Virus record (IMG/VR): IMGVR_UViG_3300042009_000026
Span: 1 to 64,000 of that record
Source of the DNA: a virus
Taxonomy: Duplodnaviria > Heunggongvirae > Uroviricota > Caudoviricetes
Length of the DNA stretch: 64,000 nucleotides
Direction: 5' to 3' (one strand)
Positions 54,332-63,375 of this stretch are shown piece after piece (position 1 is the stretch's first letter; every line of letters begins with the position of its first letter). The translations under genes were made by a program, and so were the position numbers. The notes under the pieces were generated by a model, which worked only from the letters and a program-made list of their open reading frames with translations, ran no database searches and was not told the DNA's origin.

Positions 54332-55660
54332 TTAACCTTTTACGCAGAGAATTTGTTTGAGGGTATGGACAACGTCCACAAGTTCGGCTTGAGCTGACAT
54401 TACGTCATCGATGTTCTTGTAAGCCTTTGGTGTTTCATCGAGTACGCCAATATCTTTACGGCATTCCACACCAGCGGTATCACGGATGTGATCTTCCAGA
54501 GTGAACACTTTCTCAGCTTGAGTACGGGACATTACACGACCTGCTCCATGCGAACACGAGCAGAACGATTCACGTTGACCTTTACCACGAACGATGAAAG
54601 ACTTAGCGCCCATCGAACCAGGGATGATCCCGAGAGTACCTTTGTCGGCGTTTACTGCACCCTTACGCGTTACCAGGACGTTCTGACCGAAGTGACGTTC
54701 TTCTGATACGTAGTTGTGGTGACAGTTGATTGCAGACATGTCCGAATCGATTGGCAGACCCAAGGTCTTGTGGATAGCACCCAGAGTAGCATGCATCATG
54801 ATTGAGCGATTGAGTGCAGCAAACCGTTGTGCCCAGGACACTGCTTCGATGTAATCATTGTAATACACGGAACCTTCTGGTAGATAAGCAAGATCACCAT
54901 CTGGTAGGTGAATGAAGAAACGTTTCATTTCTTCTTTTGCTTTCGCGATGAAGTACGTACCGATGGCATTACCGATACCACGAGAACCGGAGTGCAACAT
55001 TACCCAAACCTGATCGGTTTCATCCAGACAGATTTCGATGAAGTGGTTCCCTGTACCGAGCGTACCTACGTGGTTCCATGCCCGAGCTGCTGCTTTCGAC
55101 AGCTTAGGATGACGCTCTACAATCGAGGACAAATGCTTACGTAGCTTCTCTGCTTCGTCACGGATCTCTTTGACCTGGTGATCGAATACGTTTACTTTAC
55201 CAAATGCACCACGGTCGTTAGGGCCACCGTTGTCAGTGCGGCCATGAGGCACTGAGGCTTCGATAGCGGCGCGCAAATGACCCAGAGACTCAGGTAGTGC
55301 TGTGGACTTAAAAGTAAGGCGCTGTGCAGCCATACCGCATCCGATATCAACACCTACTGCGGATGGAATGATCGCACCTTTGGTGGCAACCACAGAACCA
55401 ATGGTGGCACCTTTGCCCAAGTGTACATCAGGCATCACAGCGATGTGTGAGTAGATGAATGGAAGAGCGGCAATGTTCTTCAATTGCTGGATTGCTTCTT
55501 TTTCGACTGGTACGCCGACGGTCCAGCCTTTGATTGGTTTCGAACCTTCTTCTACGGTATCACCAATCAGTTCAAATGTTTTCTGTTTCATAAAAGCCTC
55601 ACGCGGATGGAAAGAGGAATTGTTACATACACTGACTTTGCCAGTATTATTAAACGGCAT
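54332..55660 (-). CDS. rtcB: RNA-splicing ligase RtcB (3'-phosphate/2',3'-cyclic phosphate RNA ligase)
   Basis: MHSGSRGIGNAIG (GTP-binding), metal-binding His/Cys-rich segments, CHHNY; 442 aa. Confidence 0.85.
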   Translation of the reverse strand: MPFNNTGKVSVCNNSSFHPREAFMKQKTFELIGDTVEEGSKPIKGWTVGVPVEKEAIQQLKNIAALPFIYSHIAVMPDVHLGKGATIGSVVATKGAIIPSAVGVDIGCGMAAQRLTFKSTALPESLGHLRAAIEASVPHGRTDNGGPNDRGAFGKVNVFDHQVKEIRDEAEKLRKHLSSIVERHPKLSKAAARAWNHVGTLGTGNHFIEICLDETDQVWVMLHSGSRGIGNAIGTYFIAKAKEEMKRFFIHLPDGDLAYLPEGSVYYNDYIEAVSWAQRFAALNRSIMMHATLGAIHKTLGLPIDSDMSAINCHHNYVSEERHFGQNVLVTRKGAVNADKGTLGIIPGSMGAKSFIVRGKGQRESFCSCSHGAGRVMSRTQAEKVFTLEDHIRDTAGVECRKDIGVLDETPKAYKNIDDVMSAQAELVDVVHTLKQILCVKG

Positions 55661-56461: not shown

Positions 56462-57382
56462 TTACTTCAAGAAAGTACCACAGCTAGCTTGAACATCTGT
56501 ACCCACACGTGGGATAACCTTCACTCGTGTCTCTGGCAAACGATTACGGATATAACCAGCCAGATAATGAATCTGTCCTTCCACTGTTTCTTTCGACCAG
56601 TGGCCTGCCGGTGGGTTATATCGAACGACGTTCCAGTTTACACGTAGACCTATTTCTTCTATTTCGTCAATGATCGCCTTAACGTCTCCTAAAGAATCGT
56701 TTTGGTCATTAATGAAAGCATAATGGATCTTTGGTGTTTTACCGGTAACCTCTTGCCAACGCTTGAGTTCATCCAAAGCAGTAATAGGTGAACTGGCTTT
56801 AGGTAGCCACTGTTTACGAAACTGTGGATTCATACTGTACGCCGAATAGTACAGCTCAGGATACACGTCTGAGTCAGTGAAGACATCAGTTAGACGAGTA
56901 TAGCCAAAGTCCTTAGGCCAGATGGTGGAGATCAAGAACTTTGCCTCAAGCCCCCATTCTGCAGCCATTCGTTTAAGACCCCTGAGGATCTCATCGGCAT
57001 TCTCGATGAAGTGTTTGTTAGCCAGTGGTTCGCCACGTGCCATGAAGTTAAAATGAACACGCTTAGCTGGACCGTGGACAGGATCATTGCGAATGACTTC
57101 GGTGTAATGATCGAATACTCGCTCAGCTTGTTCGAAGTATTCTTTCATGGTTACATCACGTGTATCTGTTTGGCCAGTGGCCGTCAGCCAACACATCCGG
57201 CAAGCTTGTTTACAGCCTGTTTGAGACGACAAATAAACAATGAAGTAATCTTCTACCCGTCTAACAAAACGTGCCTCTAGCATCCCTGCGTGATCTTCAA
57301 AGCGGTGTTCGAAGTTAACTGATTGGTCGAGTTGAGAAACGTGTTGCTTAAAGATGAGTTCTGGCATTACCGTACTCCGCAA
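56462..57382 (-). CDS. Radical SAM enzyme, RlmN/Cfr-like (RNA adenine C2/C8 methylating family), N-terminally truncated relative to RlmN
   Basis: SSQTGCKQACRMCWLTATG (CxxxCxxC), C-terminal ...TDVQASCGTFLK matching RlmN second Cys motif. Confidence 0.7.
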   Translation of the reverse strand: MRSTVMPELIFKQHVSQLDQSVNFEHRFEDHAGMLEARFVRRVEDYFIVYLSSQTGCKQACRMCWLTATGQTDTRDVTMKEYFEQAERVFDHYTEVIRNDPVHGPAKRVHFNFMARGEPLANKHFIENADEILRGLKRMAAEWGLEAKFLISTIWPKDFGYTRLTDVFTDSDVYPELYYSAYSMNPQFRKQWLPKASSPITALDELKRWQEVTGKTPKIHYAFINDQNDSLGDVKAIIDEIEEIGLRVNWNVVRYNPPAGHWSKETVEGQIHYLAGYIRNRLPETRVKVIPRVGTDVQASCGTFLK

Positions 57383-57841: not shown

Positions 57842-57928
57842 TGGAGCTAAGAGAGGGATTTGAACCCCCGATGATCTTTCGAAACAGGATTTGCAATCCC
57901 GTGCATTCGTCCACTCTGCCATCTCAGC
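57842..57928 (-). tRNA. Type-II (long variable arm) tRNA with anticodon GCA (Cys codons) - atypical
   Basis: Manual fold: acceptor GCUGAGA, 3-bp D stem, anticodon stem CGGGA/UCCUG loop UUGCAAA, 15-nt variable arm, T-loop UUCAAAU, U73, CCA. Confidence 0.55.
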
Positions 57929-62110: not shown

Positions 62111-62527
62111 TTATGAATTAATTGCATTGATGTAGAACATGTCAAATCGTTCTGTACCCATTGGACTAATCGAATAGAACCCTGCTTCAATACGGTCGTG
62201 TTCTTCTCTGTGGCAGTTCGCACAGAGTAATAGACATTTGTCTAATTCTACTTTTATTCGATCAAAAGATTTTGTTCCACCCGATGTACTGATACCGAAT
62301 TCCTTTTCATCTGGATCAGCATGATGGAATTCAAGAGCACTTGGATTAGAACAGTATCCGCAATCGTTGCACGCGCCGCCTTTATATTCAATCGATAGAA
62401 CTTTTAATTTCCTGCGTCTATCGCTTACGGCTATGGACATGCATTTCATACAACGCCATTTAATTTGATTACCTGCACGGAAAGATCTGTATGTTACCAT
62501 TCCGTGGACTTTACATTCTTTCTGCAT
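62111..62527 (-). mobile_element. HNH homing endonuclease carrying the INS C-terminal tail (ends ...MFYINAINS)
   Basis: CNDCGYCSNPSALEFHHADP...LLCANCHREEH (HNH); C-terminal AINS. Confidence 0.65.
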
Positions 62528-62579
62528 TGTAAATTCCTATTGCGACATAAAGGAGATCTTTCGACCTCCTTTATTAAAT

Positions 62580-62664
62580 TGGCTCCGAGAACTGGGTTCG
62601 AACCAGTAGTGACTATGTCGCACGGTTAACAGCCGTGTGCCTTACCAATTCGGCGCATCTCGGA
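62580..62664 (-). tRNA. Type-II (long variable arm, Ser-like D-arm, G73) tRNA with anticodon GUU (Asn codons) - atypical
   Basis: Manual fold: acceptor UCCGAGA, D-arm GCC-GAAUUGGUAA-GGC, stem CACGG/CCGUG loop CUGUUAA, 13-nt variable arm with GAC/GUC stem, T-loop UUCGAAC, CCA. Confidence 0.55.
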
Positions 62665-62670
62665 ATGAAG

Positions 62671-62706
62671 CAGTACTTGGTCTATATTATTACATACCAA
62701 GTACTA
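62671..62706. promoter_or_regulatory. Hairpin AGTACTTGGT / ACCAAGTACT with CTATATTATTACAT in loop
   Basis: Promoter-core-like sequence presented in a hairpin loop. Confidence 0.3.
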
Positions 62707-62986
62707 TTTAAACTGTACTGGGATACCGGGCTTCCTCCGGATAATCGTTTTATCTAGACTCCCTCTCATGTCTAGCGATGCTTGAAATTATCCCAAAGAT
62801 CTCCGGTACCACAGCATTCACGGTTACCCGTTATGTGTAATATACTTCCGGCGTCATCGATGGAAATTCTTTACCTAAACAGTTCCCTAATAACTGATTA
62901 CCCTGCGCGTCAGGTCGTTCGTCTATTAGGTAGGCGTGTATGCGACGCCTCGTTTTAGTTCTGCACCTAAGTGCCTTCTGTCTAGC

Positions 62987-63060
62987 ACGCCCCTACCGGA
63001 TTTGAACCGATGACCAATGGATTATTAGTTCACTGCTCTACCAGACTGAGCTAAGGGGCG
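62987..63060 (-). tRNA. tRNA, anticodon uncertain (apparent AAU, Ile-reading if A34 modified); no encoded CCA
   Basis: Acceptor CGCCCCU/AGGGGCG, D-arm GCUC-AGUCUGGUAG-AGC, loop CUAAUAA with one A-C mismatch in anticodon stem, T-loop UUCAAAU. Confidence 0.5.
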
Positions 63061-63064
63061 ACAA

Positions 63065-63148
63065 TGGTGGATGAAGGAAGGAATTGAACCTCTAGGAGAA
63101 CCGGCGGGGTTACAGGCCGCTGACGGTAGCCATCCGTCTCTACATCAT
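63065..63148 (-). tRNA. tRNA-Tyr (anticodon GUA), type II, A73, CCA encoded
   Basis: Stem GCGGC/CCCGC loop CUGUAAC, long variable region, T-loop UUCAAUU. Confidence 0.65.
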
Positions 63149-63375
63149 CCGTATCAGCAGCAGCCGGTCCACCCGGTCATGAGGTTTTAACTCTTCTGTG
63201 CTGATAGTAAAACATTTGAAATTAACTTTGGAGAAAGGCGACTCGTTTTATCTCCTGACTTGTACCCATGCACCCATTATTGGATTGTCTAATAGACTTT
63301 CCAATGATCCACCGGGCGGCTCCTTTAATGTGGACCGGGCTGTACCTTACCGTCGTTGTAAGTTAATTTCAAAAC

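Follow-up and report, generated by a model that had tools for sequence, protein, structure and literature searches.

A putative phage asparagine tRNA with the long variable arm of class II tRNAs

According to textbooks a long variable arm is confined in bacteria to the tRNAs for leucine, serine, tyrosine and selenocysteine, where it serves as a recognition signal for the synthetase. A tRNA gene located at positions 62580-62664, on the minus strand, of a 64,000-nucleotide (nt) stretch of a Caudoviricetes virus (IMG/VR record IMGVR_UViG_3300042009_000026, positions 1 to 64,000, referred to as the window) combines such an arm with GUU, the anticodon of asparagine. In the current analysis we conclude that this gene quite probably encodes a functional phage isoacceptor of tRNA-Asn that is built in the class II, long-variable-arm format.

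Several described systems come close to this gene in one respect or another. The nematode nev-tRNAs and the eukaryotic noncanonical tRNAs with a V-arm (PMC3333845, PMC4033280) likewise join a class II architecture to a class I anticodon. The allo-tRNAs, also referred to as 8/4 tRNAs (PMC5389517), have a long arm and often G73, and occur in phage tRNA clusters. In Streptomyces coelicolor type I and type II tRNA-Leu coexist (PMC6614811); one amino acid is thus served with and without the long arm, and the gain or loss of an arm is therefore possible without a change of identity. The T5 tRNA variants that escape the nuclease AriB of the PARIS defence system (PMC12409363, PMC11464382) offer a further parallel, being a case of a phage tRNA-Asn(GUU) that is unlike that of the host and is situated in a tRNA cluster. 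A full-text search of the literature for long-arm tRNA-Asn or for class II phage tRNAs found no description of them.

Cloverleaf and amino-acid identity of the tRNA

At its right end the window contains ten minus-strand tRNA genes according to ARAGORN, which assigns the one at 62580-62664 (85 nt) to tRNA-Asn(gtt), not to a standard tyrosine or serine anticodon. The full-length tRNA model of Rfam (RF00005) matches 62583-62664 with 51.5 bits (E=4.9e-9), above its gathering threshold of 29 bits. An earlier reading made from the letters of the window (the sequence-only reading) had described a CUGUUAA loop on a stem of 5 base pairs (bp), a GCC/GGC D-stem, G73 and a variable region of 13 nt, all of which are present; its view that a long variable arm with a GUU anticodon is non-canonical is also supported, for bacteria and phages. 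The 5' half of the RNA reads UCCGAGA-UGC-GCCG-AAUUGGUA-AGGC-A-CACGG-CUGUUAA-CCGUG and is followed by CGACAUAGUCACU as the variable region, after which the 3' half reads ACUGG-UUCGAAC-CCAGU-UCUCGGA-G-CCA. The parts of the gene are as follows.

62580..62664, minus strand: whole gene, putative class-II-format tRNA-Asn(GUU) with encoded CCA (ARAGORN; Rfam; cloverleaf)
62658..62664, minus strand: 5' strand of the acceptor stem, UCCGAGA, pairing with UCUCGGA at 62584-62590; U1-A72 and C2-G71
62655..62657, minus strand: connector U8-G9 and one extra C ahead of the D-stem (a cmscan insertion after position 9)
62638..62654, minus strand: D-arm GCCG-AAUUGGUA-AGGC and A26; 3-bp stem with a G13.A22 mismatch
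62621..62637, minus strand: anticodon arm CACGG-CUGUUAA-CCGUG; the GUU anticodon is at 62628-62630
62608..62620, minus strand: variable arm CGACAUAGUCACU, 13 nt; one 5' nt, 3-bp stem GAC/GUC, loop AUA, 3-nt 3' spacer
62591..62607, minus strand: T-arm ACUGG-UUCGAAC-CCAGU (Rfam; cloverleaf)
62580..62583, minus strand: discriminator G73 and encoded CCA (read from the sequence)

The D-loop AAUUGGUA comprises 8 nt with A14, A15 and G18G19 and is without U20a, and the last nucleotide of the variable arm is U48, the Levitt-pair partner of A15. Class II architecture calls for a variable region of at least 10 nt folded as a stem-loop, and the 13 nt with a 3-bp stem found here are of this kind. The core is also that of class II, with a 3-bp D-stem, a non-Watson-Crick 13:22 pair (G13.A22) and a purine15:pyrimidine48 pair (A15:U48). 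Acceptor stem and T-stem have the normal 7/5 arrangement and not the 8/4, 9/3 or 8/5 arrangements of allo-tRNA-like or tRNA-Sec-like molecules. The window contains a single match to the combination of GUU loop, long variable region and T-loop, and none of 100 shuffles contains one. Folding the sequence on its own by minimum free energy gives no distinctive result (z = -1.28), and the support for the fold is therefore drawn from covariance models and comparative data.

The amino-acid identity has been analysed with a position-specific classifier of 20 isotypes based on about 2,300 tRNAs from phages and arrays, with the anticodon triplet and the variable region masked (78% accuracy in five-fold cross-validation). 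The window tRNA is placed first in Asn, with Gln next at 5 nats below, and Ser, Tyr and Leu fall outside the top six classes, so that the Leu or Ser body elements of the nev- or nov-type are not found. With the D-arm left out as well, Asn is ahead by 8.5 nats; the D-arm alone is placed first in Ser. The Ser-like character is therefore confined to the D-arm, and the Ser-like body proposed in the sequence-only reading holds for this arm but not for the body as a whole, which is classified as Asn.

In alignments the acceptor stem (UCCGAGA/UCUCGGA) is close to that of the canonical tRNA-Asn genes of the related phage D6 and of the loci L005 and L007 (UUCGAGA/UCUCGGA), the T-loop is the same as in these genes, and the anticodon arm is identical to that of tRNA-Asn no. 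2 of D6. The D-arm and the variable arm are similar to those of long-arm GUU tRNAs from the unrelated metagenomic phages L123, L126 and L050. The likeness to the canonical tRNA-Asn of D6 thus extends over the CUGUUAA loop, G73, U1-A72, C2-G71, the 8-nt D-loop without 20a and a near-identical acceptor stem, anticodon arm and T-loop. The differences are in the variable arm (13 nt in the window tRNA, 5 nt in D6), the D-stem (3 bp with G13.A22 against 4 bp with C13-G22) and position 9 (G9 with an extra nucleotide after it against A9). A body derived from tRNA-Ser or tRNA-Tyr with a mutated anticodon has been considered as an origin and is rejected for the window tRNA, which groups with tRNA-Asn in the masked classification and the alignments; only the D-arm and the variable arm are class-II-like.

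Asparagine identity is known to reside in the anticodon and G73, and the aspartyl-tRNA synthetase of the non-discriminating type (ND-AspRS) relies on the same elements (PMC9976931). The bacterial amidotransferase GatCAB needs U1-A72, and amidation is blocked by G1-C72 and U20a (PMC1635274). The bacterial asparagine set (G34-U35-U36, G73, U1-A72 and the absence of U20a) is complete in the window tRNA, its U-A pair at positions 1 and 72 being typical of Asn; the tRNA-Asp of the same window does have an extra U in the D-loop. C2-G71 is also known as an antideterminant against SerRS, and G73 as one against LeuRS and TyrRS (PMC9976931). The presence of GUU, G73, U1-A72 and C2-G71 without 20a suggests that the tRNA is equipped for the asparagine route and plausibly stays orthogonal to the three class II synthetases SerRS, TyrRS and LeuRS.

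The features of the other long-arm isotypes are represented only in part. The tRNA-Ser arm has a stem of 5-7 bp and a 1-nt 3' spacer, whereas the window tRNA has 3 bp and 3 nt; G2-C71, typical of tRNA-Ser (100/104 in phages), is replaced by C2-G71, and G73, which is found in tRNA-Ser, is a feature common to Asn. A variable arm of the Tyr type (3-4 bp stem, about 3 unpaired 3' nt) is present, but with G73 and GUU in place of the A73 and GUA of bacterial tRNA-Tyr identity (A73 in 57/57 phage tRNA-Tyr). It could be argued that SerRS (or TyrRS) charges the tRNA through its long arm and G73 and that AAC/AAU codons are partly read as serine (or tyrosine). In favour of such a dual identity are the role of the long arm and G73 as main determinants of SerRS in several systems, the Ser classification of the D-arm with C11-G24 present, and the nematode nev-tRNAs, which show that a class II body with a class I anticodon can be charged by virtue of its body. 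The antideterminants C2-G71 and G73 and the short, widely spaced arm oppose it, and together with the family and array data given below they make it distinctly improbable. The tRNA had also been taken as ambiguous in identity, a view that is not borne out by the Asn classification of its masked body, the likeness of its acceptor, anticodon and T arms to canonical tRNA-Asn, the full asparagine set, C2-G71 and the Tyr-like arm.

Long-arm tRNA(GUU) genes and their place in tRNA arrays

Viral contigs have been scanned for a GUU loop with at least 4 extra variable nucleotides and a T-loop, and at least 96 long GUU tRNAs confirmed by ARAGORN are found among the 120 matches listed. A stricter pattern was run on one genome per prokaryotic species. 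True long-arm GUU tRNAs account for 40 of the 120 prokaryotic loci listed, and 27 of these 40 are situated in dense arrays of 7-36 tRNAs per 8 kb; examples among the matches listed are those of the Micromonospora and Verrucosispora chromosomes, Bradyrhizobium and Massilia. A joint scan for short and long forms gave 110 new loci, of which 95 have a GUU tRNA by ARAGORN (nearly all canonical), and in addition 10 long-arm loci (9 confirmed). Among sampled phage tRNA-Asn genes that have this loop and T-loop, the long-arm form thus makes up about 8% (about 1 in 12).

The other prokaryotic loci listed have been set aside as variable arms of tRNA-Ser (Peribacteria), archaeal intron-containing tRNA-Asn genes and 3'-half tRNA-Asn elements. 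The 3'-half element occurs in Verrucomicrobiota, Acidobacteriota, Desulfobacterota and Chloroflexota (L136, L150, L153, L161, L173, L178, L186, L206, L207 and others). It is made up, in this order, of a GUU-type loop sequence, a 7-9 bp hairpin, and the T-arm, 3' acceptor strand and GCCA of tRNA-Asn, and has no recognisable 5' half. In some cases two copies lie about 300 nt from each other. The element may represent a tRNA-like RNA or what is left of an integration site.

The family set comprises at least 133 distinct (non-redundant) long-arm tRNA(GUU) genes from phage contigs and bacterial tRNA arrays. G73 is present in 127/133 members and U1-A72 in 99/133, as compared with 39/48 for U1-A72 in canonical phage tRNA-Asn; G2-C71 occurs in 48/133, against 100/104 in tRNA-Ser. 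The 15:48 pair covaries in the family (A:U in 63 and G:C in 43, n=133), and 13:22 is G.A in 53/133 members and C-G in 34/48 canonical tRNA-Asn. A 3-nt connector like the UGC of the window tRNA is shared by 30/133 members. The variable-arm stem has 3-4 bp in 100/133 and is followed by 3-4 unpaired 3' nt in 69/133, which is the geometry of phage tRNA-Tyr. A Ser-like arm is seen in 11/133, and no member (0/133) combines G1-C72, G2-C71 and a Ser-like arm, which argues further against charging by SerRS.

Tetraloops close the arm stem in 66 sequences, whereas 500 shuffles gave 21 on average and never more than 34. GNRA loops account for 54 of these 66, and the arms contain 69 different stem strands. 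The variable arm is a selected hairpin. In an RNAalifold analysis of 51 members the cloverleaf is reproduced, and 17 of its 20 pairs show compensatory changes. The closest relative, at locus L248, has 3 differences from the window tRNA, of which two form the compensatory change A5-U68 to G5-C68 and one lies in the loop of the variable arm.

In 30 of the 32 arrays with tRNAs for 15 or more amino acids the long-arm GUU gene is the sole Asn tRNA, and five arrays cover all 20 amino acids with it as the Asn tRNA. This distribution fits a tRNA that acts as the tRNA-Asn of the array and not as an extra decoy, and argues for ordinary decoding rather than a decoy or miscoding role; since no other Asn tRNA is encoded in these arrays, a consistent misreading of all Asn codons would come at a high cost. 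The roles put forward in the sequence-only reading (mistranslation, decoy or bait, recoding) gain no positive support.

A decoy or sponge would be an RNA outside translation that ties up an anticodon nuclease of the host or some other defence protein able to bind tRNA. Such a role is suggested by the targeting of tRNA-Asn(GUU) by the PARIS nuclease AriB, by the neutralisation of PARIS by overexpressed T5 tRNAs, possibly in part as inhibitors, and by a gene for the ligase RtcB that lies 7 kb away in the same cluster. We hold it to be quite improbable for the window tRNA, in which elements needed solely for charging and amidation are retained (G73, U1-A72, CCA and the D-loop length) and the acceptor stem changes by compensation, and whose family replaces the canonical tRNA-Asn in arrays instead of supplementing it.

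Arrays with a long-arm tRNA-Asn are also enriched in other long-arm class I tRNAs, although the p-values are optimistic because the sampled phages are related: the long-arm form makes up 12/38 of the Thr(UGU) tRNAs in these arrays and 0/41 in arrays with canonical tRNA-Asn only (p=5e-5), 14/20 and 2/12 of Ile(UAU) (p=0.009), and 65/913 and 9/486 of all tRNAs other than Leu, Ser, Tyr, Sec and Asn (p=8e-6). The cognate discriminators are kept in these tRNAs, with U73 in 7/7 for Cys and A73 in 17/17 for Ile(UAU); long-arm Thr(UGU) has C2-G71 in 12/12 and G1-C72 in 11/12.

Further class I anticodons with a long arm in the viral loci L008-L127 are Ile(UAU), whose very long arms span 20-26 nt, Thr(UGU) and Met/Ile(CAU), along with a small number for Lys, His and Trp. 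About one quarter of the phage tRNA-Leu(UAA/UAG) genes in the same loci carry a variable loop of just 5 nt. The window itself encodes a companion long-arm tRNA (57842-57928, minus strand) with a GCA anticodon, U73 and a GAAA-looped variable arm of 15 nt, which is kept in phage D6 (L002 8150-8236); long-arm GCA tRNAs of phage arrays have U73 in 7/7. The companion had likewise been regarded as ambiguous in identity, but it carries the U73 and is classified as Cys when masked.

The locus, its relatives and neighbouring genes

The Pseudomonas jumbo phages D6, Psa21, Phabio and 201phi2-1 are relatives of the window; patches of their DNA are 76-83% identical to it. A BLAST search of the tRNA against 50,697 phage records, which do not include the phage of the window, gave one weak match. 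At the same locus D6 and the metagenomic relative L005 each have two ordinary 76-nt tRNA-Asn genes and L007 has one, and Psa21 has a long-arm tRNA(GUU) with G73, behind which lies an HNH gene from another family. The Psa21 gene (MK552327, 88-90 nt), labelled just 'tRNA-Asn' in GenBank, resembles that of the window in locus and strand, in the HNH gene directly downstream and in GUU, G73 and U1-A72, and its variable arm also has a 3-bp stem, with a 3' spacer of 4 nt. Its acceptor stem is a different one, its D-arm (CCCG/GGG) is Tyr-like and has a longer loop, a GAAA loop is present, the extra nucleotide at 9/10 is absent and the HNH gene belongs to another family. The features around the window tRNA are given below.

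54332-55660, minus strand: RtcB RNA ligase gene (Pfam, E=1.9e-127), flanking the tRNA cluster, 7 kb from the tRNA-Asn
56462-57382, minus strand: weak radical-SAM match (Pfam), annotated RlmN in relatives, flanking the tRNA cluster
62114..62527, minus strand: HNH endonuclease gene (Pfam HNH, E=2.8e-5), 53 nt downstream of the tRNA
62549..62572, minus strand: 10-bp hairpin capped by a GAAA loop, located between the 3' end of the tRNA and the start codon of the HNH gene (read from the sequence), identical in L248

The RtcB and radical-SAM genes are suggestive of tRNA repair or modification functions at the cluster. Pfam searches of 18 neighbouring open reading frames revealed no synthetase, amidotransferase or tRNA-modification gene beyond RtcB and the weak radical-SAM match. 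The hairpin at 62549-62572 may be a processing or termination signal.

The HNH endonuclease probably travels with the tRNA-Asn locus as a mobile companion. The HNH protein of L248 is 93% identical to that of the window, and the nearest homologues lie directly downstream of a long-arm tRNA-Asn in nine loci (L248, L249, L102, L109, L097, L047, L093, L118 and L233). Members of the family follow 11/86 long-arm (about 13%) and 7/107 canonical tRNA-Asn genes, a difference that is not significant (p=0.21), and 63/1742 other tRNAs (p=5e-4); the family is about threefold enriched downstream of tRNA-Asn genes. As the gene accompanies both long-arm and canonical tRNA-Asn, the association explains the mobility of the locus and not the arm. 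The family inhabits phage tRNA arrays at about 30 viral loci, and its distant members adjoin Gln, Lys, Glu, Asp and Arg tRNAs.

Fragments of tRNA-Asn genes have been identified just upstream of the live long-arm gene in two relatives. In Psa21 (L001 8752-8812, minus strand) the fossil consists of the first ~24 nt of a canonical tRNA-Asn with an acceptor strand nearly as in its long-arm gene, and in L248 (2815-2863, plus strand) of the initial 23 nt together with the 3' end of a long-arm gene of the Psa21 type. These fossils indicate that tRNA-Asn alleles have been serially replaced at the locus.

The arm could be a by-product of homing, if ordinary tRNA-Asn genes are cleaved by the HNH endonuclease, the present gene escapes cleavage through its arm and altered D-arm, and the cassette of tRNA and HNH gene spreads by gene conversion while the tRNA still works as tRNA-Asn. 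The HNH gene 53 nt downstream, the nine loci with nearest homologues in this position, the different HNH gene in the equal position in Psa21 and the serial replacement recorded in the fossils are in keeping with this scheme. It is nevertheless unlikely, as the HNH family is enriched at tRNA-Asn genes generally, just ~13% of the long-arm genes carry it, and a GNRA-capped arm of conserved geometry with a co-adapted D-arm exceeds an arbitrary disruption of a target site. The related idea of the arm as an immunity polymorphism against the adjacent HNH was examined, found to lack a significant excess at long-arm genes and kept as a minor rival.

The fossils, together with the extra nucleotide at 9/10 and the G13.A22 mismatch, might also point to a decaying or non-functional tRNA gene. 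This is hardly credible, given that the invariant tRNA positions are all intact, L248 differs by a compensatory change and by one in a loop, and many unrelated contigs have the same architecture down to the 3-nt connector.

Other tRNA-like elements are present in the vicinity. The element at 63065-63150 (minus strand) has GUA, A73 and CCA, is not homologous to the normal tRNA-Tyr of D6, L248 and L005, and by eye has a possible 8-bp acceptor stem, 4-bp T-stem and 5-bp D-stem. It had been cited as a true tRNA-Tyr but is not a standard tRNA; ARAGORN makes no call, and the sole Rfam match is to tRNA-Sec at 23 bits. It is about 92% identical to a sequence present in the three 112-kb Pseudomonas phages Nican01, phiK7B1 and ZY21, which in ZY21 is annotated as tRNA-Tyr. 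At 62706-63060 (minus strand) a tRNA-like element (called Ile-AAU, no CCA), with an anticodon region whose size varies from phage to phage, is followed by a strongly conserved non-coding region of about 200 nt that is common to the window, D6 (L002 16270-16545) and Psa21 (L001 8810-9122). RNAalifold on the three sequences gives several helices with 8 pairs showing compensatory changes; there is no Rfam match to this region. An insertion of 80 nt is present in the window copy at about 62792-62871.

Proposed function and comparison with known systems

The tRNA would be transcribed along with the neighbouring tRNAs and then processed. It would be charged via the asparagine route of the host, which in a Pseudomonas host would involve ND-AspRS followed by GatCAB; in P. 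aeruginosa Asn-tRNA is made only in this way. The charged tRNA would decode AAC/AAU as asparagine, with TyrRS and LeuRS presumably blocked by G73 and SerRS disfavoured by C2-G71 and the short Tyr-type arm with its 3-bp stem and 3-nt spacer. The arm may alter the surface of the tRNA core and thereby shield the phage Asn tRNA from host defence nucleases that target tRNAs, which is the guess that we prefer. tRNA-Asn(GUU) and Thr(UGU) are among the targets of PARIS AriB (PMC12409363, PMC11464382), and other defence systems are known to cleave tRNAs in the variable loop or to take off the anticodon arm. Pressure from such defences is hinted at by the co-occurrence of long-arm Thr(UGU) and Ile(UAU) and by the presence of RtcB in the cluster.

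Certain observations weigh against reading the gene as a functional tRNA-Asn. Class IIb synthetases (AsnRS and AspRS) approach the tRNA from the side of the variable loop, and a long arm might clash with them. G73 and a long arm are the main serine determinants in several systems, and some serylation is conceivable because they form the core of serine identity there. That an additional nucleotide separates positions 9 and 10 is unusual, and the longer D-loop of the Psa21 homologue might mimic the 20a antideterminant for GatCAB. Across the family the masked classifier gives Asn for 60 members and Gln for 43, both being U1-A72/G73 types between which it is not sharply specific. The host is deduced solely from related phages.

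If the tRNA is charged correctly, class IIb synthetases and GatCAB tolerate a long arm, and G73 with a Tyr-type arm would constitute a naturally orthogonal class II scaffold of use in genetic-code engineering. A phage-specific selective force would then favour the arm, and tRNA-targeting defences are the obvious candidate. We tentatively extend this to a wider proposal, which we regard as possible though doubtful: phages may have repeatedly turned class I tRNAs into class II with identity kept, Asn(GUU) being the commonest case beside Thr(UGU), Ile(UAU), Cys(GCA) and Met/Ile(CAU), and the Tyr-like arm may hide these tRNAs from nucleases such as PARIS AriB. If true, it would represent a new structural route of immune evasion and would break the rule by which, in bacterial systems, a long arm is found on no tRNAs but those for Leu, Ser, Tyr and Sec.

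The escape of T5 from AriB (PMC12409363, PMC11464382) involves point changes in the anticodon stem, and a long variable arm is not reported to play a part in it. The nev-tRNAs have a Leu or Ser body, are charged with leucine, are weakly expressed and correspond to rare codons, whereas the phage tRNA keeps the identity elements of the amino acid of its anticodon and is usually the sole Asn tRNA of its array. The allo-tRNAs have 8/4 or 9/3 stems and are predicted acceptors of Ser or Ala, in contrast to the 7/5 arrangement and Asn identity of the window tRNA. The tRNA-Leu of Streptomyces represents the loss of an arm in a class II family, and the phage tRNA-Asn the gain of an arm in a class I family. 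None of the nev-tRNAs, the allo-tRNAs and the Streptomyces tRNA-Leu is a class II tRNA that keeps a class I identity; the phage tRNA-Asn, as judged from its sequence and those of its relatives, appears to perform an ordinary function in an unexpected and widespread format.

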